Positions 6,113-18,311 of a DNA stretch of 64,000 bases are shown here, one piece after another. The translations under genes were made by a program, and so were the position numbers. The DNA is taken from positions 97,656-161,655 of the forward strand of contig CAZTJN010000001.1 in NCBI GenBank assembly GCA_964613955.1. Direction: 5' to 3'. Within the stretch, counting starts at the first letter, position 1. Every line of letters begins with the position of its first letter. A model generated the notes under the pieces. The model made no database searches and had not been told where the DNA came from. It saw nothing but the letters and a program-made list of their open reading frames with translations. The DNA comes from an uncultured archaeon (GTDB lineage Archaea > Aenigmatarchaeota > Aenigmatarchaeia > QMZP01 > QMZT01).

Positions 6113-7333
6113 TTATTTTCTCCTTCTGAAGTAGAAGAACCACCCCAAATTTATCATTATTAACACTATTACAAGCGGCGTTAATATGTCGTAGCCTCCG
6201 CCCTCTTCCCTTCTGATAGCCTTTGCTGTCACCCCAAGTATCTCCGTCTTTATGCTCTCCAGCTCTATGTACGTCTTGAGCTTCTTCTCCGTGGTTCTGC
6301 TCGCGTAATGCAGAACAAGGTTCGCATCGTATACGCCTTTTTCAACCCCTTCCGTGTCCCAGTATGCCAGTAACGTTTCCTTCTGAAGCGGTTCGATGTC
6401 GACAGAGGCGGATTTGACGTTTGCGACTGTGTTGCCCGCCGCATCCTTTATCACCATTTCAGCATAGACGTTTTCGATTTTCTTGTTCCACTTGCTCTCC
6501 ACGAGGATGTTGAACTTTGCCACTCCACCCAGCCTGAATCCCTTAACCGTGACTTCCTTCACATCCACGAAAAGGTTGCCCACGTAAAAATTCTTTTCTG
6601 CTCTTGCGATTTTGTTATCGTACCTGAGCGTAGCCACCGCATGATAGACCCCCGGGTTCACGTCCGCTTTCCAGTACGCCGCCAAGTCCTTTCTTTCCTT
6701 TGATTTGATGGGGATGTCCTCGGTCTCAACCGTATCAATAACCTCGTTCGTCGGACCCTTTATTTCGATGGATGCCTTTGCGTGCGCTATGTTCTGCGTC
6801 CCGAGATTGTAAACCTTAACGAAGAAGTTCACGGTTTCTCCAGGCTGGGCTTCGGCGATGGTCAGATCCATTTCTGCATACTTGCCTGGGTACGGGACCT
6901 TCACCAGAAGCTGGTGTATGACGGCAGTAGTGGCAATAACGAACTGCCCTTTTAATTCTTCCTGCCCTGTGATGCCTGGTGGGAGTTCCATCAAAACAAT
7001 CTTTGCCCAGTGGTCTCCAGGTTTGTCGATACTTTCAGGCAATTTGACCGTATATGTGAAGGGCTTGGAGTATTCCTCTTCACTGAACTCAACCAAGTTT
7101 TTTTCAATATTAACGTAATCCTTCAAGTCCCCCTCCACGTAAACTAGAGCATTGAATGCCTTGTGGTCGTTGTTAAGAATCTTGAAGGTAATTTTTTCAG
7201 AGAGGCCGGGCTCAAATTCAATTGTTTTCCTGCCCGGCGTAACTCCTATGGCACCCGCATTCACCGGAACTGTGAACAGGACCAGCAGGAATGCCAGCAC
7301 TGCGAACCCCCTAAGCCTGCTCCCCTTTGACAT
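6113..7333 (-). CDS. Cell-surface protein with signal peptide and C-terminal TM helix plus polybasic tail (paralog of 913-2103)
   Basis: 'MSKGSRLRGFAVLAFLLVLFTVPVNAG' signal. C-terminus '...DILTPLVIVLIMINLGWFFYFRRRK'. Shares the 'VPYPGKYAEMD' motif with ORF 913-2103. Confidence 0.6.
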   Translation of the reverse strand: MSKGSRLRGFAVLAFLLVLFTVPVNAGAIGVTPGRKTIEFEPGLSEKITFKILNNDHKAFNALVYVEGDLKDYVNIEKNLVEFSEEEYSKPFTYTVKLPESIDKPGDHWAKIVLMELPPGITGQEELKGQFVIATTAVIHQLLVKVPYPGKYAEMDLTIAEAQPGETVNFFVKVYNLGTQNIAHAKASIEIKGPTNEVIDTVETEDIPIKSKERKDLAAYWKADVNPGVYHAVATLRYDNKIARAEKNFYVGNLFVDVKEVTVKGFRLGGVAKFNILVESKWNKKIENVYAEMVIKDAAGNTVANVKSASVDIEPLQKETLLAYWDTEGVEKGVYDANLVLHYASRTTEKKLKTYIELESIKTEILGVTAKAIRREEGGGYDILTPLVIVLIMINLGWFFYFRRRK

Positions 7334-7796
7334 TCTCCCCTTCTCCTATTTTAACCGATGAGCCAACCCCGAGGACCATGGCCCCCGTGACCCTGCTGAG
7401 AACAACGTCCGTGTTCCCTTCGTTCCTGACTTCGTTCTTCTCCCTTGCAAGCACAACGCTCGAACCCAGAGTAAATTTGCGGACCCCGCTTTCGAACACC
7501 CCGCTCCTGACCTTCCAGTAGTACGTCCCGAAATCCAAGTTGTTGCTGAACCTGAAGGAGTTGTCCGAAACTTTAACAGCGAAAGGACTTGTGAAATCTT
7601 GGTCGTCATCCACCAGAAGTTCATATTGTTTGTAGGGACCGCCCCACACAAATTCAGGCGCTCTTTCCGTTATATACACCCCGTTTTCCGGTTCTATCAG
7701 CGGGATGGCCGTTACGCCCGCCAGAAGATAGATAACTAATCCGATGACTAACAAATTCGCCAGTATCAGGGCCTTCGAAATCTTAAGTTTCGCCAA
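7311..7796 (-). CDS. Membrane-anchored protein with Fn3-like extracellular domain (161 aa)
   Basis: N-terminal TM helix 'ALILANLLVIGLVIYLLAGV'. 'GTYYWKV' type motif. Overlaps the upstream gene by 14 bp, suggesting an operon. Confidence 0.45.
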   Translation of the reverse strand: MAKLKISKALILANLLVIGLVIYLLAGVTAIPLIEPENGVYITERAPEFVWGGPYKQYELLVDDDQDFTSPFAVKVSDNSFRFSNNLDFGTYYWKVRSGVFESGVRKFTLGSSVVLAREKNEVRNEGNTDVVLSRVTGAMVLGVGSSVKIGEGENVKGEQA

Positions 7797-9414
7797 TGTA
7801 CCACCCCGTGAATATGAGAGTAGATGATTTACCTCCTGGAGGTTCGTCCCAGGGAACCATTATCTGGATTTCGACTTCGGCGGAATCATTCGTGTCCGTG
7901 TAGTTCAGCGAGTTTATGAAGGTGTTGTTGACCAAAGGGACGTTTGTCCAGCTTGTTGTCGAGCCGGTCCAGTTGAATGCCCCCTCCTCTCCCGGCCACC
8001 AGTCAACAGAATAGTTGAAGTAGTCTGAAGGCACGGGAGCAGAAAGCCATAAAGAATTTTGGGCAGATATATTCACGTCTATTATGCAGTTCCCGTCATT
8101 GTGAAGGCCAAACGGATTCGGCGCGTTGTCCGAGGTGTCGTTCTCATATCCCAATGGCCTGTTTTCCCCGAAGTCAACCACGTCAGGTGAAATCGAAATC
8201 GAAACATTCGTGTCTATTGTGAAGTTCCATTTGTCACTTTCCGTTCCGTTTTCGTATCCGTCATACGCCTTAACGGACCAGTTGTAGTAGTAGTTATCAT
8301 CCCCGAAGTACCGGAGTTCTGTGGAAGGTGTGTAATTAAGATCAGGTGTGCTCGCATATCTGTTATCGCTTGAACAATCCCCTCCTCCCAGCTTAAGACA
8401 GGTTATGTTTACGAAATACGTCAGAGAATCGCCGTCCGCATCATTCGGCTTATTCCATTTCAACGTTGGCGTTTTGTTTGTGAAATGCGAACCGCTCGGC
8501 GGGGAGTCCAAAATAACTTTGTCAGGTTTCGCATTTTCACGGAACTGCCTTAGCGTTTCGTTGCCCCACACACCGTTGGAATCATTCGCATAAACCTTGA
8601 ACTGATACGTTGTTCCGTCCAGTGTTGTTTTTGTTTTGGTGCATATCACACTGTTGCCAGAGCCTATCTTGTTCATGGTTTCATTGCCTGCCGGGTTGTT
8701 TCCCTCTTTCCATTCGAGCAGACACGTATCGATGCTTGCCTGCGAATCAGAAATGACAGTTACATTTATCGTTACGCTGTTTGCGATCTGCCTTGTTCCG
8801 TCCCCGGGCGTTGGGCTTTCGTATGTGACGCTCACGTCATTTGCAACCCTGCAGCATATCTTCCTTTTGTACTCTTGGCACGGCCCGATATGCGCGTTTG
8901 TGTCGTTGTTTTCCGATGGATATGCGGAAGCCATGGATGCGAAACACTCCCTGTCACTCGGGCAGGCATTATCCACATAAGTGCAGTTGAAATAGCCAGG
9001 CGTGGCTTCCAGACAGACGTCAACTCCATAAACAACCCCAGGGCCCGAATAATCACCCCTTTGAACATGCGAATTGGTGGTCGCGTTCAATCGGAGGAAA
9101 ACGCCCTCGCAACCGTAGGAGAGGGTTGAGTTCGAATCGCAGCATATCGCATAAGGATAGTTGTTAACGGAAACATTCTGGGCATGCGCATTCCAGTAAC
9201 CTCCCGTGTCGTTCTTCACGTACAAGACAGGGGTGTATGAACAGCTGGTATTCACCGTAAAACTGCAATCTAAATCACCGGCGGCCGAAACAAGATACAC
9301 AAAAACCAGAGTAAGGAGAAAAATCATCTCGATTATCATTAAATTGCTTCCCCTGGAACTTTTCCTCAAGACGTTCCCCTCCCTATGAAAGAATAGAGTA
9401 TTACCCAGTATCAA
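7783..9414 (-). CDS. Secreted Cys-rich surface protein (about 518-543 aa; the likely true start is the internal Met at 9339)
   Basis: The internal Met gives a classic signal 'MIIEMIFLLTLVFVYLVSAAG'. Many Cys and NxS/T sequons. Fn3-like segment '...LKWNKPNDADGDSLTYF...YYYNWSVKAYDG'. Confidence 0.6.
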   Translation of the reverse strand: MILGNTLFFHREGNVLRKSSRGSNLMIIEMIFLLTLVFVYLVSAAGDLDCSFTVNTSCSYTPVLYVKNDTGGYWNAHAQNVSVNNYPYAICCDSNSTLSYGCEGVFLRLNATTNSHVQRGDYSGPGVVYGVDVCLEATPGYFNCTYVDNACPSDRECFASMASAYPSENNDTNAHIGPCQEYKRKICCRVANDVSVTYESPTPGDGTRQIANSVTINVTVISDSQASIDTCLLEWKEGNNPAGNETMNKIGSGNSVICTKTKTTLDGTTYQFKVYANDSNGVWGNETLRQFRENAKPDKVILDSPPSGSHFTNKTPTLKWNKPNDADGDSLTYFVNITCLKLGGGDCSSDNRYASTPDLNYTPSTELRYFGDDNYYYNWSVKAYDGYENGTESDKWNFTIDTNVSISISPDVVDFGENRPLGYENDTSDNAPNPFGLHNDGNCIIDVNISAQNSLWLSAPVPSDYFNYSVDWWPGEEGAFNWTGSTTSWTNVPLVNNTFINSLNYTDTNDSAEVEIQIMVPWDEPPGGKSSTLIFTGWYIGET

Positions 9415-9456
9415 TTATAATCTTGGTGGCTAAGAAATAAAAATCGACTGTGAAAT

Positions 9457-10047
9457 TCAAAGAGTGCATCCAGTCGTGCTCTCAATCCAGTCCAGTGATT
9501 TCAGGCCTGTGTATATTTTGTTGTCGTAAACGATGGATGGTACCTCTTTCACCCCCAGCTGTTCGCATGCCTGCAGGTTCGCTCCTGTGCAGTCCACGTA
9601 AACCTTGTTGGCATAGTTTCCTATTGCCAGCAACTGCTGCAGCGTATTGGGTTCGCTCTTTTGACCAAGAACGATGAACCCTTTTGAGCGCAGACATTCA
9701 GCGAACTTCTTCTCTTTCTCGAGCCTAGCGAGGGTTCCGGAAACCTCCATTATGTTCTCTGAGAGAAACCTTCCGTCTTTCGTTGCGTAGAGCTCCTTTA
9801 TAACATCCCCGTCTCTCAGTTTCAACCTTACCAAAAGCTTGTAGACATACCCCTCGTCCTTGACGTTGAGAACCTCCACATCACTTTCCGTTAACATTTT
9901 GTAAACATTTTCCACGCTGTCCACAACCTGTTTTTGTGACCCGAGCGTGATAGTGTTCTGCAGAAGCATAAATGCGAGTATGATGACCAGAACCAATATT
10001 ATCCCTATGTAGACCAAATCCTTTTTCACAATCTTCTTTGGGGCCAT
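9457..10047 (-). CDS. Membrane-anchored thioredoxin/glutaredoxin-fold-like protein (putative)
   Basis: N-terminal TM helix 'LVYIGIILVLVIILAFMLL'. C-terminal 'GVKEVPSIVYDNKIYTG' resembles the cis-Pro/GG region of glutaredoxin/thioredoxin folds, and cysteines lie in 'FAECL' and 'VYVDCTGANLQAC'. There is no canonical CxxC motif, hence the low confidence. Confidence 0.35.
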   Translation of the reverse strand: MAPKKIVKKDLVYIGIILVLVIILAFMLLQNTITLGSQKQVVDSVENVYKMLTESDVEVLNVKDEGYVYKLLVRLKLRDGDVIKELYATKDGRFLSENIMEVSGTLARLEKEKKFAECLRSKGFIVLGQKSEPNTLQQLLAIGNYANKVYVDCTGANLQACEQLGVKEVPSIVYDNKIYTGLKSLDWIESTTGCTL

Positions 10048-10128: not shown

Positions 10129-12666
10129 TTAGCCTAACCTTATGATAACGTCCCCGCCGTCGCTCTGCAGCCGCAGGTCGCTGGAGTCCCTGCATATATC
10201 AACTCCTGATCCGCAACCGCCGTTTGCGTCAAGGTTGATATCCCCGCCGCTCACCGTCAGGTCACCATCCATCTGCACATTTCCGTTGTCCAGATCAACA
10301 TTTGCCCTGTCCGTTCCGCTGCCAGTGAATTCAATTGTGTTCGCTCCCGTGTCCCAGTAGATGCCCCAGTTGGTCGCTGTTTTAAGCCAGAAGGCGCTCG
10401 CATCGTTGAAATTCACGCCGCCATTGTTGTTGTTAATGCTCACATCACCTCCGTTTACTGTCAGGTCAGCAGCGAGCGTCAAACCCCCGCCTGTTGTGAA
10501 GTCAGTTCCTCCATTTCCAATGTTCGTTATCAGGTTGTTGTTCATGTCTATGTCCTGGCTCATTTGGTTTTGTCCTCCGGAAAGATGAAGTGAGAATGGG
10601 TCTGATTCACTCCCCAAACCAGAATCTGCCGCGCAGTACCAGTACGAACCAGTCGATTCCCACTTGAGTATCTGTCCGTCAGAACAACTCTGGTTCAGAA
10701 CAACCGTGTCCGAGCTTATCTCTATGCCGTTCCCTGTCTTCACATAAAGCGCACCAGAACTCAGCCCTAAACCATTTCCTGCAACACTCGAATCCAGCTC
10801 TGTCCCTGTTGCAGTCACAGCACCCGAATCAAGCTCATCAGCACCTACAGCACCCGTGCTTATATCATCCGAGCCAACCTCGTTCCCACCGTCATTGATA
10901 AATCTCGTATCTGCCTGACTCCTCGTAAGCAAGTCATTCGCATTGTCGTTGTTCAGATAACCTTCAGCAGACAAATCAGAATACGCGCTGTACCTGCCCG
11001 TGCTCAGGGTCCCGGATGTTATGTTGGATGCATCATGCGTGTGCGTGTCGGCAAGGCTTGACTTGGCAATCCATGTGGGGTCTGCGCCCGAACCCTGGCT
11101 TTCCAGCACGTCACCGCTGTTCCCTGCAGCCAAATCATTTATCGTGCTCGCTCCTGTCCAGTAAGCCAGCCTGTGGTTCGTCCCGGTTCCTGACACTGAA
11201 CCGCCAGAGTTCTCATCAGCAGCACAGTACCAGTACGACCCTGTCGATTCCCACTTAAGTATCTCCCCGTCCGAACAGCTCTGGTTCAGAACAACCGTAT
11301 CCGAACTTATCTCTATGCCGTTACCGACGTTCACCGACAAGGCAGAACTTCCTCCTCCTCCGAGCCCTGCGCCGGCGTAAGCCGAGCTGAGCGCGTCGCT
11401 GGTCAGGTCAACCGAGTTCGCAGCCAGGTCCGTATTTCCCACACAGTCCGTGCACCCTGACTGCCATTCTGCTATGCTTTCTACTGCGTCTTGGGTTGCC
11501 GTGTAAGTTTCGCTCCCGCATGATATCGCTCCTCCGTCAGCAATGCTCTGCACGAAGTTCGCTCCTGAACAACTTCCTGTTACATCCTCCTGATACTTTG
11601 CCGAAAGCGTGGAGCCTCCCTCATAAATCGTACCGGTCGCGTTTATGTCACCCACAACATCCAGTTCCTGCTGTGGAGTTGCCGTCCCGATGCCGACGTT
11701 CGCGTTCAGTATGTTAACCTCGTCCGTTGCTTGGTTGTCAAACTCTATCCTCCCTGCAGATGAGCCAAGGCCAATCCAGTCATCGTCCGTCACAGTAAGC
11801 GAAGTCTGGACCGTCGGCGTTGTCAGTGTCGGCGAGGTCGAGAAAACCACATTCCCTGTTCCAGTCCTTGCCGTGTAGTTAGCAGTCCACCTCGGGTCGC
11901 TCTCGCTCCCCAAACCAGAATCTGCCGCACAGTACCAGTACGACCCTGTCGATTCCCACTTAAGTATCTGTCCATCAGAACAGCTCTGGTTCAGAACAAC
12001 CGTGTCCGAACTTATCTCTATGCCGTTCCCTGTCTTTACACTCAGTATACCCTGCGAGTATCCAAGACCATTCCCAGCGGACGTGCTCGAAAGGTTCACT
12101 CTTGGTTGCGGACCGGCAGAATTCGTGACAGTTATTCCCCATCCGGCAAGCACATCCGTGACATCTCCGGTCCCAACTCCCATATTACTCAGACACTTCC
12201 CGCCTTGTATACACAAGTCAGTTGTGGAGTTTATTGTGCCTGTAGCGTTTATGTTACCGACCACGTCCAGCTCTTGATATGGAGTTTCTGTTCCTATGCC
12301 TATTTTTCCGCTTATCGAATCCACATACAGCGTATCCGTGTTCACTATAAGGAAGCTGTTGATTGTCAGATTGTTAGGGAACACGTAATTTCCGGACTCG
12401 AACGTTCCTGCCGATATCGAGGACGCCGGATGGCCCGGATTGGCAGGGGAGGCGTGAACTGTTGTCACCAGGGAGGTGAAACAAGTGATCAAAACAATCG
12501 ATAGAGCTACCGCTAAGCAAGGTCGCGTTCTGGGCTTCGCCATTTTACCCAAACCGACTAATGTCGAGCCGATTTTCCTGGAGTTACTAACGAAGGTATA
12601 TGCGTTCCTTAACGAACGCAGGGCCACCTCCAGTATGGCGAAGATTACGGTTGCAAACCAGTTCAT
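10129..12666 (-). CDS. Secreted Gly/Ser/Thr-rich repeat protein, 845 aa, with three near-identical 45-65 aa internal repeats and a tail-fibre-like Gly/Asn/Asp-rich C-terminal region
   Basis: The more plausible start is the internal Met at 12543, giving signal peptide 'MAKPRTRPCLAVALSIVLITCFTSLVTTVHA'. The repeat 'GNGIEISSDTVVLNQSCSDG(Q/E)ILKWESTGSYWYCAAD' occurs three times. No C-terminal anchor. Confidence 0.7.
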   Translation of the reverse strand: MNWFATVIFAILEVALRSLRNAYTFVSNSRKIGSTLVGLGKMAKPRTRPCLAVALSIVLITCFTSLVTTVHASPANPGHPASSISAGTFESGNYVFPNNLTINSFLIVNTDTLYVDSISGKIGIGTETPYQELDVVGNINATGTINSTTDLCIQGGKCLSNMGVGTGDVTDVLAGWGITVTNSAGPQPRVNLSSTSAGNGLGYSQGILSVKTGNGIEISSDTVVLNQSCSDGQILKWESTGSYWYCAADSGLGSESDPRWTANYTARTGTGNVVFSTSPTLTTPTVQTSLTVTDDDWIGLGSSAGRIEFDNQATDEVNILNANVGIGTATPQQELDVVGDINATGTIYEGGSTLSAKYQEDVTGSCSGANFVQSIADGGAISCGSETYTATQDAVESIAEWQSGCTDCVGNTDLAANSVDLTSDALSSAYAGAGLGGGGSSALSVNVGNGIEISSDTVVLNQSCSDGEILKWESTGSYWYCAADENSGGSVSGTGTNHRLAYWTGASTINDLAAGNSGDVLESQGSGADPTWIAKSSLADTHTHDASNITSGTLSTGRYSAYSDLSAEGYLNNDNANDLLTRSQADTRFINDGGNEVGSDDISTGAVGADELDSGAVTATGTELDSSVAGNGLGLSSGALYVKTGNGIEISSDTVVLNQSCSDGQILKWESTGSYWYCAADSGLGSESDPFSLHLSGGQNQMSQDIDMNNNLITNIGNGGTDFTTGGGLTLAADLTVNGGDVSINNNNGGVNFNDASAFWLKTATNWGIYWDTGANTIEFTGSGTDRANVDLDNGNVQMDGDLTVSGGDINLDANGGCGSGVDICRDSSDLRLQSDGGDVIIRLG
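10607..10800 (-). repeat. Intragenic DNA repeat copy (encodes protein repeat 3)
   Basis: About 135 bp core '...cagtaccagtacgaaccagtcgattcccacttgagtatctgtccgtcagaacaactctggttcagaacaaccgtgtccgagcttatctctatgccgttccctgtcttcac', nearly identical to the copies at 11216-11340 and 11906-12095. Confidence 0.8.
11216..11340 (-). repeat. Intragenic DNA repeat copy (encodes protein repeat 2)
   Basis: Near-identical to the cores of the 10607 and 11906 copies. A few substitutions, for example Q->E. Confidence 0.8.
11906..12095 (-). repeat. Intragenic DNA repeat copy (encodes protein repeat 1)
   Basis: Shares the 'tccccaaaccagaatctgccgc...' leader and the core with the copy at 10607-10800. Confidence 0.8.
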
Positions 12667-12712: not shown

Positions 12713-15700
12713 CTAAAAGTCCGAATTGTAATGCAAAACCCCCTTGAAGTACATGTTTCCTGTCGCAGAGTCTATGTATCCAACAACATTACCTCCCGAG
12801 TCCTGAACTATGAAATCATCATTTCCTGACGGAGTTGGACTGCCATTCTTGTAGAAATACCCCTTTGCAGCTAGGTTACCGGAACTGTCTATATACAGCA
12901 TCACACTCCCTCCCGAGTCCTTTAAGATAAAGCTGTTTGCAGGTGGGGACAGGGATGACTGCGCAGGTGAATAGCTTCCTTTCACATCCACGTACCCAAA
13001 TTTATCAAACCTGGCCTTCACAGAACCAGTTGAGTTTTGTATGAGCAAACATTTGTTCGTTGCATCGCATGTCGTTCCATGACCTCCGTCAATAGAATCA
13101 TCATTAACAACAAGCACGCTTGAATTCTTTGTGATTCCATCATCCACGCCATCGCTTGGCGTGACCTCGCATCTCCACTGATCGCCTATGTCGGTCTCCT
13201 GGCTGACCATGGTGGATTTATAGGAATAGCCGTCCTTGCTGTCCTGGTAAAGAGCATTAACCTGCTCAGGTGAAAGCGAGTAATTATATATGCGGACCTG
13301 ATCGATTGAGCCGTTGAAATAATTCTGTGCTACACCAATCTGCATGTCACTAGTGCCCTGCCAGTTAATTCCTGATGAGTTTGTCAGGTTATCAAGTTCT
13401 TGACCATTCACATAGAGCCTAGCGATTTGACCATCATAAGTGAATGCGACATGAACAAACTCATTAATAGGAAACTTATAAGATGAACCCCAAAGACTCT
13501 GCGGGGTTGAGCCTCCAAAGTTAATCTGAACCCGAGGATAATTATTATAATCCAGTAGTCTCCACCCACTAGAGTAACCATCCCCTTTCGCACTTTTAAC
13601 AATCCCATTCCAACCTGTTACGGATGTATTTTCATACGTTTTAACCCATAAGGATAGTGTAATATTTTCTGGAGCCAAGGAAATATCATTACCTACATCG
13701 ACATAGGCATTCACACCATCAAACTCGTAAGCCCCGCCAACCTTCCCGGAGGATGTCCAATTTGGTCCGTACAGTATGCCATTATTGGCATAACCCGAAT
13801 AATCCTTGGTTCCATTCGTGACCTTCGTATCAAACGGCATATTCAGAACCATTATTGATTTGTTGTTCTTGTACCAGTTGTAAATGTTTGTGACAGAATC
13901 CCCATCTTCATCATAAGTCGACTGATTCCAGCACGTTATGTTGTCACTGGTCATATTGTAACCGGATGTGCTGTTAATGAGCGGGTCTGAATGAGTGGGT
14001 TTTGCATTTACCTGGCAGGTTAGACTGCAGGAAATCGTGGCGTTACTGAACCCCGGCGGGTGCTCGTCGCACTGCGGGGAAGCGCCGCATTTCTGTTCGC
14101 AAAGATCATTTCCTGTCGCCCCCTCCCTCTGCGTCTTGTTGTTCGTCCAGCACCTCACGCACTTTCCATCCTCATCATCCTTGCCCGGATACTCGCTCGT
14201 TGTCCCTCCAGTCGGGCAGCAGTCAGAGTCCGCTATTGCAGAATAGCTCATCGGAACGCAAAGGGTCTGTGTGGTTGTGCAGGAACCTTCATTGCTGTTC
14301 GGATCCTCTGTGTCATTAATCTGGCCAGACCCGCACTCTTCTTCTCCTATCTCTAGGTAATATGTGGTCTCATCGTCAGGTTTTGTTGCGAATTCAGACC
14401 AGTCCATTGTTATTTCATAGTAATCCCCGTAAGTCCCTTCGTTTGAATCCGTGTCGTTGCACCAGTTCCTTAGGCCAGTGTCATAAAAGCATCCGTTTGT
14501 TCCGTAATTACAAGCCCCTGTTCCCGAGCCATCATCATCTATTCTCCATCTGTGGTGTCCTGAATTTGAATAGGTATCAGGAGTTTCGTCTGCCACATCC
14601 CATCTTATGGTCAACGTTTTGAACTGATCCGAACTGCCCGACTGGGTAAGATAACACTGGCCTATGTGTGGCCCGTTCCATGACTGGTTCAAGCACTGAT
14701 ATCCCTGATCCTGATTACTTGGACCATTTCCGTGGTCATTCCATATGGCATTTCCAACACAGCTTTCTTTGTCGTAGGTAGTTCCGGCCTCGCCCGAACC
14801 GTACGGATATTCAGTTCCTATGCCATCACAGTCGTCAGGTGTCAGGGGTTGACCTATCTGCTGCTTCCACGTGTTCGCTCCAGTTCCAGCACCGTCACAG
14901 TAGTAACCCACGCGTCTCGTGCACGAACTGTCTTGAGTGGCGACTCCTCCCAGATTCCCGTTACATCCGTAAATTTCCCCGTCGATGCACAAGTACTGGT
15001 TGCTCGAATCCGTGGTTCCATTTGTAACGGTCTCGCCGTTTATGCAGCAACTGTTGCCAGAACCTGAATTTTCGAAATCATCATTTGCTCCATCATCCCC
15101 GCAGCACTTGGAGTAAGAGCCTGTCCCACTGGAAAGCCAAGTATTCCCATCTAGTTCACAAGATGTTTGGTCACTATCCTGGGCATACCATAATGAAGAC
15201 AGGCAAACCTCATTGTCTGAACCATCACCACCACCTGTGTCTCTTATAGTTCCGTTGTCATAACAGCCATCCTGATTTGTTGTGTTACTTCCTGGTAGAG
15301 AGTCATCTACACAGTCAGTGGAATTCGGACAACAGCCTATACTTCCTGTCCCATCAGCACCACTACCTGCCTCGGAAATGTAGTAGCCGTACAACACATA
15401 GCCAAAACCTGTATCCCATTCCCTTATTTCAAGCTGATGGAAGTTTGCGGTGTCAGACGCATTATATATGTAATTATATCTCCATTCGTCATTTCCGCTG
15501 GCGGGAGTCGAACTGTTCACATTTGTGTTATGCTCGGTTGTGGTTACAATAGCATTCACATTCCCATCGGCATCATATACATTATACCTCAAACAAAGGT
15601 CTCCATCCGGGTTGCTTGGAGTTGTGTAACCATGGTCACCGCATTTCCCGTTACCTGAAGAATCACCGCTCCAGTAAGCACCTTGGGAATAATTGATGGT

Positions 15701-17932
15701 CATTAACACCCCCAAAGACAAACTTTCAACATCCCTGCACTGGTAAGTGTAAGAACAGCTGCCTTGATTATTATTGATCTGTTCTGAAACACAAATCTTA
15801 TTTGAGCCGCACTCTGAATCAGTGTCACAGCATGGGTTTCCATCTCTGCAACTCTGATAACTAAGGCACTCGGATGTTGTGCAGGCAGTACAAGACCCTC
15901 CAATACAATAGTTGTTACTGCCACAGTTATTGGTGTTCCAGTCACCTGAATTACAAATCCATGAATAGGCATCATCAGAAGAACTTCCATTGTCATAACA
16001 ATCAGGGGCATTCGCACCATTGGTGTATGCACTACCATCATGCATACAATTCCCGGCATTGGCACACCAGCATTCATCTCCGGAATCACAATTACCGTCA
16101 GCATTGCTACTTCCGTCATAGTCATCCCTACAGTATCCGGAAGAACAGACTCCATTTGATTCAGAAGAACTGTCTGTGTTTGTCACAGAGAAATCACAAG
16201 TCCCTCCCTGTGATTTTTGAGCTTGGCATAATGTAGAAGCATTACAGAAGAAACCTGACGGGCAATCGCTGTTCTGTGTACAAGCCAATGTGCAGTCATT
16301 AGAAGAAGTATTGCAGTGATATCCTGAAGCCGTGTCACACTGTGAATCAGTATTGCAATCATACCATGTCCCTGCGTTACAGTAATCGCTGTCCCCGTCG
16401 TTGTCTACATCCTTATTCGTATCGCCGTTGGATGCGTAGCAGTTCCCGCCTTGATCCGCAGGGTTATAACAATCTTGCATTGCTTCATCCCAATCGTTAT
16501 CAAATGGACACCCATCTGTTGGAATACAGACATCCCAACTATCGCAGGTGTTGCAGATACAACCATCCGCATTATCGCACACGCCTGCTCCTGCTGTCCC
16601 TGCGTATTCTGTGTCCTGCATGCAGTTCCCTGAAACACATGCAGTTTCTAGGTCGCAGTCGGAATACCCGTTGTATCTTTTGTAAATGCAGTCATTGCTT
16701 GTGCAGGCTTCACTGCAGTCTGTGCTGCCATAGCATGCATCACTGGTTTCTCCCTCTGCATACTCACCTGCCGGATCGCAGTGGCTCGTGTCTGTGCAGT
16801 CTATCCATGTACTTGATGAACATACGTCATCGTCTCCGTTGCTATCAACATCTTTTGTCCCGGAAGTTGCATAGCACGTGTCAGCATCAACGCAATCCGT
16901 CGAAGGATTGCAGCAGGCATCTGTGGATGCTGGTGGGTTTTCAATAGATGCTCCATAAGAACCAGTCAAGTAATTCTCCCCGCTGTCATCCCCACAACAA
17001 TTTGCGCTCGTTCCTGTATCGAAACCGAAACCCCGCGTTGGACCCCAGCAACTCCCTCCGCTACAACCTGTTGTTCCTTGTTTACAATTACACCAATTCT
17101 CATCTGTATCCCAGTTCACGGTATAAAGGCTGGGAAGAGTTGTGTTAATGGTCTCGTTTTCATAGGCCGAGCATGTCTGGTCACCACCGGCTGCATATGC
17201 TGTTACGTTCGCTACGTATGTCCCTTCTGTCGGGCAGAATGTGTAACCCAAATCATAAGTCCACGTTTCGTTCACCACGTAAGGGCTGCTGCTACATGAT
17301 CCTTCAGAGCTTTGGTACGTCATCCCGTGGGGTCCAGAGTCGCCACCGCCCGAAGGGGCAGTCACGGTTACCCACATCTGGCTTACGTCACAGCAATGAC
17401 ATGGAGAAACATCCGTCCCCGTGCAGTCAGCCCAGTTCTCAGCGTATGCATCTTCCCCTAGGAACGAAAATTTCAGATAGTGATGGCCTGTTTCGAGAAT
17501 TCTCAGAACAAGCCTCGCTTTTTCGCTACACTCCCAGTCTCTCGCGATAATTTTTCCATTGGACACGCCTTCAAAAAATTCATTCTTACCGCTGTCAGAA
17601 AAATATTTTTCAGCCTTAACCTCTCGGTTTCCGCACTGAAGCCTGATGAATTCGATGCTCTTCCCGAAATACGTTTTTTCATATGCCTGTATTTCAAGGT
17701 CTCCCTTCCCCTCTGTCTCGAAATTCACTACCCACCGGCCCCATAAAGTGGGACTGGAAACAGGGTTGAGGATTTTTATATGTGTGCTTCCGGAGGGAAG
17801 TTCGGGTTTGGGGAATATCATGTTGAGAAGCATTTCCAGAATAGTCGTCTGCTCCGCTTTTACCCCTATCGGAAAGACTGACAAGACCAGGCAAACTGTC
17901 AGCACCACCGATACCACGACCTTCCTATTCAT
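12713..17932 (-). CDS. Giant secreted Cys/Asp/Gly-rich protein (1739 aa) with C-terminal LamG/concanavalin-A-like lectin domain
   Basis: Signal peptide 'MNRKVVVSVVLTVCLVLSVFPIGVKA'. Hundreds of Cys in 'C..D.D.DG' type calcium-binding-like motifs, with internal repeats such as 'DVDSNGDDDVCSSSTWIDCTDTSHCD' and 'DVDNDGDSDYCNAGTWYDCNTDSQCD'. C-terminal region '...YEFDGVNAYVDVGNDISLAPENITLSLWVKT...GWRLL...FVHVAFTYDGQIARLYVNGQ...' matches the LamG_3 laminin-G/ConA fold signature. Confidence 0.8.
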   Translation of the reverse strand: MNRKVVVSVVLTVCLVLSVFPIGVKAEQTTILEMLLNMIFPKPELPSGSTHIKILNPVSSPTLWGRWVVNFETEGKGDLEIQAYEKTYFGKSIEFIRLQCGNREVKAEKYFSDSGKNEFFEGVSNGKIIARDWECSEKARLVLRILETGHHYLKFSFLGEDAYAENWADCTGTDVSPCHCCDVSQMWVTVTAPSGGGDSGPHGMTYQSSEGSCSSSPYVVNETWTYDLGYTFCPTEGTYVANVTAYAAGGDQTCSAYENETINTTLPSLYTVNWDTDENWCNCKQGTTGCSGGSCWGPTRGFGFDTGTSANCCGDDSGENYLTGSYGASIENPPASTDACCNPSTDCVDADTCYATSGTKDVDSNGDDDVCSSSTWIDCTDTSHCDPAGEYAEGETSDACYGSTDCSEACTSNDCIYKRYNGYSDCDLETACVSGNCMQDTEYAGTAGAGVCDNADGCICNTCDSWDVCIPTDGCPFDNDWDEAMQDCYNPADQGGNCYASNGDTNKDVDNDGDSDYCNAGTWYDCNTDSQCDTASGYHCNTSSNDCTLACTQNSDCPSGFFCNASTLCQAQKSQGGTCDFSVTNTDSSSESNGVCSSGYCRDDYDGSSNADGNCDSGDECWCANAGNCMHDGSAYTNGANAPDCYDNGSSSDDAYSWICNSGDWNTNNCGSNNYCIGGSCTACTTSECLSYQSCRDGNPCCDTDSECGSNKICVSEQINNNQGSCSYTYQCRDVESLSLGVLMTINYSQGAYWSGDSSGNGKCGDHGYTTPSNPDGDLCLRYNVYDADGNVNAIVTTTEHNTNVNSSTPASGNDEWRYNYIYNASDTANFHQLEIREWDTGFGYVLYGYYISEAGSGADGTGSIGCCPNSTDCVDDSLPGSNTTNQDGCYDNGTIRDTGGGDGSDNEVCLSSLWYAQDSDQTSCELDGNTWLSSGTGSYSKCCGDDGANDDFENSGSGNSCCINGETVTNGTTDSSNQYLCIDGEIYGCNGNLGGVATQDSSCTRRVGYYCDGAGTGANTWKQQIGQPLTPDDCDGIGTEYPYGSGEAGTTYDKESCVGNAIWNDHGNGPSNQDQGYQCLNQSWNGPHIGQCYLTQSGSSDQFKTLTIRWDVADETPDTYSNSGHHRWRIDDDGSGTGACNYGTNGCFYDTGLRNWCNDTDSNEGTYGDYYEITMDWSEFATKPDDETTYYLEIGEEECGSGQINDTEDPNSNEGSCTTTQTLCVPMSYSAIADSDCCPTGGTTSEYPGKDDEDGKCVRCWTNNKTQREGATGNDLCEQKCGASPQCDEHPPGFSNATISCSLTCQVNAKPTHSDPLINSTSGYNMTSDNITCWNQSTYDEDGDSVTNIYNWYKNNKSIMVLNMPFDTKVTNGTKDYSGYANNGILYGPNWTSSGKVGGAYEFDGVNAYVDVGNDISLAPENITLSLWVKTYENTSVTGWNGIVKSAKGDGYSSGWRLLDYNNYPRVQINFGGSTPQSLWGSSYKFPINEFVHVAFTYDGQIARLYVNGQELDNLTNSSGINWQGTSDMQIGVAQNYFNGSIDQVRIYNYSLSPEQVNALYQDSKDGYSYKSTMVSQETDIGDQWRCEVTPSDGVDDGITKNSSVLVVNDDSIDGGHGTTCDATNKCLLIQNSTGSVKARFDKFGYVDVKGSYSPAQSSLSPPANSFILKDSGGSVMLYIDSSGNLAAKGYFYKNGSPTPSGNDDFIVQDSGGNVVGYIDSATGNMYFKGVLHYNSDF

Positions 17933-18188
17933 TTCCGCCCTCCGTTAGGTAATTCCCGTTTACGAGTTTCGGGATCTCAAAGGCTTCCTGCTTTCTTGCA
18001 AACGAATAGAGCTTCGCTTTTCCCACGTCCCTCCTTTTCACATGACCCTTCGCCTCAAGAACCGCAAGATATTTGGAAGCCGTCACTCTGTGTATTCTCG
18101 CTTTCTCGGCTATCTCCAGAATAGTCAGAGAAATATCGGATTTTCTTAAAATGTCCAAAATCAGCTCCTCTAAAAAATCAGGACCCAT
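17925..18188 (-). CDS. Small winged helix-turn-helix transcriptional regulator (87 aa)
   Basis: 'LTILEIAEKARIHRVTASKYLAVLEAKGHVKRRDVGKAKLY' is the HTH recognition helix plus wing. Its 3' end overlaps the giant gene start by 8 bp, so the two are co-transcribed. Confidence 0.6.
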   Translation of the reverse strand: MGPDFLEELILDILRKSDISLTILEIAEKARIHRVTASKYLAVLEAKGHVKRRDVGKAKLYSFARKQEAFEIPKLVNGNYLTEGGNE

Positions 18189-18226
18189 CTACCCAACCCT
18201 TGGAAGGCAAAAAGCCTTAGACATCC

Positions 18227-18268
18227 ATGACTAACATTAATGTCAATTTTTTGACATTAATGACTAAC
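18227..18268. promoter_or_regulatory. Operator-like element: 22-bp perfect inverted repeat TAATGTCAA-TTTT-TTGACATTA flanked by direct repeats ATGACTAAC
   Basis: Located in the 123-bp divergent region between the wHTH regulator (start 18188, minus) and the Dpm1-like GT2 (plus). The palindrome spans 18238-18259 and the direct repeats are at 18227-18235 and 18260-18268. TATA-like AT tracts follow at 18275-18323. Confidence 0.45.
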
Positions 18269-18311
18269 ACCTAGTTTATTAATTATTGGAAAAGATTCTA
18301 TAAATTGTTTA

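Follow-up and report, generated by a model that had tools for sequence, protein, structure and literature searches.

What role does a small DNA-binding protein play at the head of a gene for a giant, apparently secreted protein, and why should the two genes share nucleotides? The question is raised by a stretch of DNA of 64,000 nt (here called the window) from an uncultured archaeon of the Aenigmatarchaeota, a DPANN lineage (CAZTJN010000001.1, positions 97,656-161,655, forward strand). In this window, an open reading frame (ORF) of 87 aa that encodes a winged helix-turn-helix (wHTH) protein (17925-18188) runs into an ORF of 1739 aa that encodes a predicted secreted mosaic protein, the giant (12713-17932); these genes and all of the operon features described below lie on the reverse strand. 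DPANN archaea depend on contact with host cells. Little is known of how their attachment surface is built and controlled, and most of the lineages, including the Aenigmatarchaeota, are uncultured. The best reading of the locus is that it forms the promoter-proximal end of a conserved Aenigmatarchaeota cell-surface operon. It is likely that this operon is autoregulated and translationally coupled, and that the giant is an exported recognition adhesin.

The gene pair itself is unambiguous. Both ORFs and their 8-nt overlap had been drawn by an earlier reading made from the sequence alone (the sequence-only reading), and both were confirmed. The overlap reads ATGAATAG, as the wHTH gene ends in GGC GGA AAT GAA TAG and the giant gene begins with ATG AAT AGG. 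The coupling junction (17925-17943) consists of a GGAGG at 17939-17943, 6 nt 5' of the giant's ATG (17930-17932), and the TAG stop codon of the wHTH gene (17925-17927). The codons for the conserved C-terminal "GG.NE" of the wHTH protein fall on the GGAGG and ATG of the next gene, so that the need for a ribosome-binding site there probably constrains the tail of the protein. Among related loci (numbered L0xx; relatives of the giant protein are numbered P000x), the junction GGAGGnnnAAATGAATAA/G is also present in L002/L011 and L003, and the 8-nt overlap recurs in L008, L009, L010, and L012. A complete genome (CP070801.1) and a JGI contig each carry an 83-aa wHTH ortholog that overlaps giants of 2119 and 1266 aa, respectively, by the same 8 nt.

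A survey of genomes and metagenomes yielded 59 distinct loci, so that the tight coupling of the wHTH to the giant, previously proposed for a single locus, is now seen to recur in dozens of Aenigmatarchaeota loci. The wHTH stop codon overlaps the next start codon in 45 of the 59 (by 4 nt in 24, 8 nt in nine, 11-20 nt in ten, and 1 nt in two), and lies at most 5 nt from it in seven further loci. An N-terminal hydrophobic segment is present in the protein downstream of the wHTH in 55/59 loci, and this protein is at least 1000 aa long in 15/59, many being truncated by contig ends. The partner gene differs between loci: in L018, and downstream of the second paralog in L010, it is the ortholog of a 543-aa protein that is encoded further down the operon in the window.

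With the ribosome-binding site and start codon of the giant gene inside the last codons of the wHTH gene, both proteins would be made from one transcript and at a fixed ratio of regulator to surface protein. The next gene, encoding an 845-aa fibre-like repeat protein (10129-12666), follows 46 nt 3' of the giant with a GGGAGGTGA Shine-Dalgarno sequence. The 46-nt spacer has no T-run; the first potentially terminating T-runs occur between the fibre gene and the 196-aa gene that follows it, with none before 10077. Co-transcription of these genes is consistent with the overlap, the Shine-Dalgarno site, and the absence of a T-run before 10077.

The small protein had been called a winged-helix regulator, and this is borne out by weak Pfam matches and by profile comparison with the PDB. 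Fourteen wHTH families of Pfam match the 87-aa protein with E-values from 7e-6 to 0.06, the score of HTH_IclR being just equal to its cut-off (22.0 vs 22). The family profile finds IclR (1mkm, E 2.2e-5) first and PapI (2htj, E 1.4e-3) second, with the Lrs14-like 6cmv (E 3.5e-3) and also CadC among its matches. Judged by its sequence, the protein has a winged-helix fold and fits no named family well. Membership of the IclR, MarR, TrmB, or ArsR families proper was considered and rejected, since all but HTH_IclR score below cut-off and the 87 residues hold no effector domain. Its relatives form 116 clusters of 57-108 aa, of which all named ones are from Aenigmatarchaeota; likewise, searches with the small protein led to loci whose titles name Aenigmatarchaeota or an "uncultured archaeon" throughout, except for two weak bacterial matches. 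The recognition helix is IHRVTASKYLAVLEAKG and the wing is RRDVGKAKLY; across the family alignment, the helix TASKYLAVLEA is invariant and the wing reads R.VGKAKL.

The element at 18227-18268 that the sequence-only reading had singled out is present, conserved, and co-varies with the wHTH. It belongs to an operator-like array (18222-18270) of two perfect copies of CATTAATG, a self-complementary octamer (8-bp palindrome), 20 nt apart and flanked by GTTAGTCAT repeats and a CATGGATG variant. Both copies lie within an inverted repeat with 12-nt arms (18235-18246 and 18251-18262), and the palindrome at the array spans 28 bp (CATTAATGTCAAAAAATTGACATTAATG). No other cluster of this kind occurs in the window. 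The same motifs, with 13- or 20-nt spacing, are found 5' of ortholog wHTH genes, where 43 matches in 1800 nt of upstream sequence compare with 58 in 257 kb of background (~100-fold enrichment). A second wHTH paralog, in L010, also has a copy of the motif to itself.

The motif varies with the two residues that precede the invariant core of the recognition helix. In the "HR" clade, ACATTRATG is present in 20/23 loci vs 4/37 elsewhere (Fisher p=3e-9; these motifs were defined post hoc and the loci are related, so that such p-values are overstated and indicative only), and TAGTCAT in 15/23 vs 1/37. Repeats of the TTAGTGAA type are present in 8/17 loci of the "HY" clade (1/43 elsewhere), and ATCATTAAT in 5/9 loci of the "NR" clade (2/51 elsewhere). 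This pattern of covariation is the one expected of a regulator and its own operator. There is thus comparative evidence for a cognate-operator array, in that a repeated palindromic site lies between the putative promoter and the start codon and co-varies with the wHTH.

A candidate archaeal TATA box, TTTATA, is found at 18299-18304, and TTTATAT/TATATAG boxes occupy the same relative place in L018, L003, and L008. As the box is ~30 nt 5' of the array, the likely transcription start would coincide with the operator sites or come immediately before them, and for archaeal repression this is the usual arrangement. The wHTH would then bind the CATTAATG arrays between the TATA-like box and its own start codon and control its own operon, an autorepressor being the simplest form of such a circuit. 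Between operator and start codon, in the putative 5' untranslated region, there is also a small hairpin, AAGGC-TTTTT-GCCTT (18204-18218), possibly a structured element of this region. L003 and L008 have the same hairpin, and another one, GACGTTCGCTAGCGAACGTC, is found at that place in L009.

Small wHTH regulators near genes for surface structures have precedents. PapI and FaeA of bacterial fimbrial operons are stand-alone wHTH proteins of ~70-90 aa, encoded in or next to an adhesin operon. In contrast, the wHTH described here belongs to an archaeon, scores below the FaeA cut-off in Pfam (18.8 vs 20.7), and is, by sequence, the translationally coupled first gene; the CATTAATG palindrome array takes the place of Lrp/GATC sites, and there is no evidence of phase variation. 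Among archaea, the Lrs14-like AbfR1, ArnR, and EarA are small HTH proteins that act on genes for pili, archaella, or biofilms by way of short, repeated, promoter-proximal sites. Their relation to the present protein is only that of wHTH proteins in general, and they are not known to be translationally coupled first genes of their own operons. No description of a wHTH-plus-operator cassette that is specific to Aenigmatarchaeota and heads secreted-protein genes with a start/stop overlap was found in the literature. It is this regulator cassette, with its Aenigmatarchaeota-restricted wHTH family, that is the new part of the finding. The locus offers a concrete and testable regulatory unit, in which a small protein is combined with a palindrome of 8 bp and a defined (predicted) promoter, at the head of a conserved seven-gene surface operon. 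The wHTH family and its clade-specific motifs could further serve as markers of surface-protein operons when new genomes of Aenigmatarchaeota are searched.

The partner of this regulator had been described as a secreted, adhesin-like LamG protein, and both the LamG profile and the fold support this. Homolog searches returned an identical protein on a contig of 170 kb; its relatives there are LamG proteins of Candidatus Aenigmatarchaeota and one from Micrarchaeota. The giant would be exported by means of a putative signal peptide or membrane anchor (aa 1-26, 17855-17932; MNRK, a hydrophobic core, and VKA|EQ), which was read from the sequence and is kept in orthologs. A cysteine in the middle of this hydrophobic core (Cys14, 17891-17893) is kept in 7/8 orthologs and is unlike a lipobox. 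An N-terminal Ig-like β-sandwich follows (aa 50-170, 17423-17785; pLDDT 71-94), the architecture of the giant comprising two Ig-like domains, Cys-rich modules, a LamG lectin domain, and a conserved C-terminal β-repeat domain. The aa 50-170 domain represents a widespread unnamed family (395 representative proteins at E<=1e-3, many of them giant) that matches no Pfam family and, in fold searches, only generic Ig-like structures. Outside aa 50-245, a model of aa 1-600 is of low quality, and a fold search with this model likewise returned only generic Ig-like matches above E 1e-3.

The LamG/ConA-like lectin domain (aa 1405-1558, 13259-13720) is the sole Pfam domain of the giant (Laminin_G_3, PF13385; E 3.8e-27, 95.7 bits vs a cut-off of 27.6). 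In an AlphaFold2 model of aa 1300-1739, the mean pLDDT is 58 and the LamG part reaches 70-84. Foldseek matches this model to ConA-like jelly rolls (E 2.5e-11 to 1e-9), the top matches being the Hc lectin-like subdomains of the clostridial neurotoxins TeNT and BoNT, domain 4 of AbnA, and the lectin domain of trans-sialidase. The domain had been placed at the C-terminus of the protein, a position that is in fact taken by a separate conserved domain of about 125 aa (aa 1612-1739, 12716-13099), built of three ~35-aa β repeats. Over the final 125 aa, identity is 64-67% in L003, L008, L009, and L010, and the same domain is present in L018. All ten aligned orthologs end in (L/F/I)HY(N/Y)S(D/N)F (12716-12736), a near-invariant HYNSDF, with H, Y, S, and F invariant. 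This end matches no known motif and might serve for docking or sorting; a profile of the domain found nothing in PDB or Pfam. A bulb-lectin-like reading, considered from the repeat pattern, was dropped for want of support in these two databases.

The composition of the giant is 107 Cys (6.2%), 9.5% Asp, and 11.2% Gly, with ~35 N-x-S/T sequons; the sequence-only reading had put the cysteines at more than 150. It was right about a duplicated module of ~60 aa. Copy A (aa 339-400, 16733-16918) reads CC..DC..CY..DVDSNGDDDVC..W.DC, and copy B (aa 487-547, 16292-16474) carries a DVDNDG loop. Smith-Waterman alignment with shuffling gives z=11.8 for this pair and z=5.2 for a weaker third copy (aa 866-930); this method was needed, as self-BLAST of the giant gave no off-diagonal matches. 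In relatives, the module reads CC-x4-DC-x5-CY-x8-DxDxDGDxDYC-x2-GxW-x-DC. It matches no PDB chain or Pfam family, the nearest being disintegrins at a non-significant E of 3.7. The "C..D.D.DG" motifs that had been read as thrombospondin type-3 or calcium-binding-like have no exact match; only two DxDx(D/N)G loops exist (aa 361 and 508). These two loops, followed by acidic residues and Cys, do resemble thrombospondin type-3, but they are 147 aa apart, form no contiguous array, and have no profile or PDB match. Thrombospondin type-3 (PF02412) was found neither in the whole protein (Pfam, E<=0.1) nor in 13 isolated modules (E<=1), and no thrombospondin or COMP chain of the PDB appeared at E<=10. 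DUF11 (PF01345), which had also been named as a domain to look for, is likewise without a Pfam match at E<=0.1. The Cys-rich modules are probably disulfide-bonded, and the two DxDxDG-type loops could bind calcium. After the signal peptide, the number of Cys is even in 7/8 orthologs, which fits disulfide pairing and is no proof of it; the view of the sequence-only reading that the protein requires extensive disulfide formation thus has indirect support only.

The giant is a mosaic with conserved ends. A 684-aa ortholog in L008 consists of the equivalents of aa 1-582 (69% identity) and aa 1615-1739 (66% identity). The giant of the window therefore has ~1030 extra residues in its middle (aa 583-1614, 13091-16186), which are absent from the 684-aa ortholog (L008/L026). 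This variable middle holds further Cys-rich modules, a block at ~aa 850-1345 that is common to P0005 and P0003 (53-60% identity), and the LamG domain. BLAST likewise resolves the protein into patches with different relatives: aa 1-208 with P0002 and P0004; aa 167-378 with P0003, P0002, and three copies in P0006; aa 307-700 with P0013 and P0011; aa 849-1344 with P0005 and P0003 (53%); the LamG part with many proteins; and aa 1611-1739 with P0004 (64%). Full-length relatives range from 529 to 2119 aa, and partial ORFs downstream of wHTH genes exceed 2600 aa. The conserved ends probably dock to other products of the operon, and the middle is swapped between lineages, as would be expected of an adhesin by which an ectosymbiont recognises its host or another surface. 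The fixed ends and exchanged middle thus offer a natural place to seek determinants of host specificity.

Organism-specific LamG lectin-like proteins with many N-glycosylation sites have been proposed to serve host attachment in DPANN archaea (PMC7443923; PMC11310336; PMC5498576), and it is on the strength of this literature that the giant may be taken to adhere to a host or substrate. It is also probably heavily glycosylated, because of its ~35 sequons and a glycosylation island of 45 kb that adjoins the operon. In being large, secreted, lineage-specific, and fast-evolving, with a LamG domain and many sequons in a small-genome archaeon, it resembles the DPANN LamG/ConA-like giants, such as those of Nanohaloarchaeota (PMC7443923). 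It differs from them in being Cys-rich, in its docking-like conserved ends, and in always being headed by a dedicated wHTH gene. The SPEARE proteins of Nanohaloarchaeota, with serine protease and restriction-endonuclease domains, are a different case, as the giant has neither. As an attachment protein, the giant is of an ordinary type for DPANN LamG surface proteins and is no surprise for the group.

Several points weigh against reading the locus as an autoregulated adhesin operon. Transcript structure, DNA binding, localisation, and adhesion all rest on inference from sequence, which does not decide between repression and activation by the wHTH. The TASKYLAVLEA core stays constant across clades with different motifs, so that specificity would have to reside in a few flanking residues. 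The Cys-rich regions are modelled poorly (pLDDT <50), and neither their fold nor their calcium and disulfide chemistry can be read from models. Finally, no host is known for this Aenigmatarchaeota lineage from the present data.

The genes downstream of the giant bear on what the operon as a whole might build. The fibre-like protein contains a segment of ~45 aa in three near-identical copies (GNGIEISSDTVVLNQSCSDG.ILKWESTGSYWYCAAD), together with repeated IGT.TP..ELDVVG.INATG motifs. Among relatives, its length ranges from 845 to ~1400 aa, the N-terminal 135-150 aa being 67-68% conserved. A 196-aa membrane-anchored protein comes next (9457-10047), with an N-terminal membrane helix and a putative, degenerate thioredoxin-like C-terminal domain. 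It had been suggested as a membrane-anchored thioredoxin-like protein, and the membrane helix stands. The thioredoxin similarity is marginal, with a best PDB match, over the C-terminal half only, to the thioredoxin-like domain of Synechococcus VKOR (3kp8, E 0.054), and there is no Pfam match at E<=1. At the CXXC position, the protein and three orthologs read SEPN (aligned as K-S-E-P-N), so that there is no support for this protein as a catalyst of disulfide formation. The operon continues with a 543-aa secreted Cys-containing protein (7783-9414), a 161-aa protein with an N-terminal membrane helix (7311-7796), and a 406-aa protein that has a CARDB domain, a signal peptide, and a membrane anchor at its C-terminus (6113-7333), the last two being conserved operon members. 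Gene order downstream of the giant is kept in L008 and L010 and rearranged in L018, and L009 ends after the fibre-like gene.

Such a set of genes could also be read as encoding structural components of the envelope, such as an S-layer or a cell-wall-like sheath, with the wHTH tuning envelope synthesis. The operon is conserved across Aenigmatarchaeota and includes CARDB, β-helix, and membrane-anchored proteins that are typical of archaeal envelopes; it is adjoined by the large glycosylation island, and similar large secreted proteins of ARMAN have been treated as surface-layer proteins (PMC5498576). A protein that varies from 529 to 2119 aa and has its middle replaced between close relatives would, however, be unusual as a former of lattices, and the giant is Cys-rich and bears a lectin domain, which makes a purely structural role unlikely.

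More doubtful is the notion that the wHTH belongs to a lineage-wide "leader cassette" of promoter, operator, wHTH gene, and overlapping start codon, which moves in front of secreted-protein genes and whose product senses the export or assembly of its partner. The sensing would proceed through the cytoplasmic N-terminus of the partner, or in the form of a fusion, as in P0006. If true, transcription of the adhesin would be tied to successful secretion or to host contact. The partner changes between loci, as described for L018 and L010, where a separate wHTH-plus-operator cassette heads the ortholog of the 543-aa protein. The second wHTH paralogs (L010, ~11115-11300; L018, 9001-9222) each have their own CATTGATG-type operator and lie directly 5' of the 543-aa-protein ortholog. 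No wHTH copy is present in the 42-nt gap (9415-9456) 5' of the 543-aa gene in the window.

P0006 also underlies a further proposal, namely that the wHTH is physically linked to its secreted partner, in a membrane-proximal signalling pair or as a sensor for secretion feedback. P0006 (L004, 8001-14603; GCA_041643275.1) is a single ORF of 2200 aa that joins a wHTH to a giant ectodomain, in the order of an Hjc-like PD-(D/E)xK domain, the wHTH, a membrane helix, and the ectodomain, which is Cys-rich and contains DUF2341 and LamG. With such a topology, the wHTH would be cytoplasmic, and the near-universal start/stop overlap exceeds what regulation alone would need. Yet the fusion is a singleton whose nearest N-terminal relatives are free-standing proteins of ~200 aa, a single base error at an overlapping junction of a metagenome assembly would produce it, and first-gene autoregulators with overlaps are common. 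A physical link is, accordingly, quite improbable. As a Rosetta-stone link, P0006 was set aside on account of its singleton state and free-standing relatives, and it is kept only as a low-probability lead. The free-standing Hjc-like plus wHTH relatives of ~200 aa also adjoin giant genes (L023).

An origin of the cluster as a virus- or mobile-element-derived module (fibre plus receptor-binding protein) is scarcely credible: the G+C content is 0.44-0.53 over 1-18 kb, the surface-protein operon, vs mostly 0.30-0.41 in the remaining window, the 845-aa neighbour is fibre-like with a weak Adeno_shaft match, and DPANN viruses can carry LamG proteins (PMC11310336), but PHROG matches are limited to generic LamG and wHTH, the 2.9 million contigs of IMG/VR contain no relative of the wHTH, scans of the window showed neither an integrase nor a capsid or terminase protein, the same synteny stands beside housekeeping genes in several genomes, and a shift in G+C can follow from a composition rich in Gly, Asp, Cys, and Ser. 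The shift at 1-18 kb may reflect this composition or a different origin. Phage tail-fibre and receptor-binding proteins do provide a likeness to the giant, in that conserved ends surround a mosaic, recombining middle shared in patches with distant relatives, but the locus is without viral context in PHROG and IMG/VR. As for a diversity-generating retroelement, no reverse-transcriptase family is present among 43 window ORFs scanned (mostly >=150 aa), template repeats not having been searched. Scans of the window for tRNAs and Rfam families found none.

With the autoregulated adhesin operon as the preferred reading, the surroundings of the locus and of its relatives remain to be described. In L019 (449-8162), a wHTH cassette and a 2285-aa LamG giant directly follow archaeal type IV pilus genes, which comprise a PilB3/T2SSE ATPase, KaiC-like ATPases, and two T2SSF genes. 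A prepilin peptidase (Peptidase_A24) in L005 and a Pilin_N protein in L007 are also encoded near relatives of the giant, and together these contexts hint at a link of the giants to pilus-type machinery. On the other side of the operon in the window, the glycosylation/envelope island of ~45 kb (18312-64000) contains several GT2 and six or seven PMT_2 (ArnT-like) genes, radical-SAM enzymes (at least five B12-binding and four SPASM), two epimerases, a DegT aminotransferase, a carbamoyltransferase, and an LPG_synthase_TM protein. Relatives of the giant in L002, L004, and L005 are also flanked by radical-SAM and GT2 genes. At the far end of the operon, the CARDB-domain gene (6113-7333) has a paralog at 913-2103 on the same strand. 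Common to the two proteins, of ~400 aa each and 27-28% identical, are a signal peptide, a "GIGxxPG" start, a middle that resembles CARDB, and a membrane anchor at the C-terminus that bears an RRRK tail.

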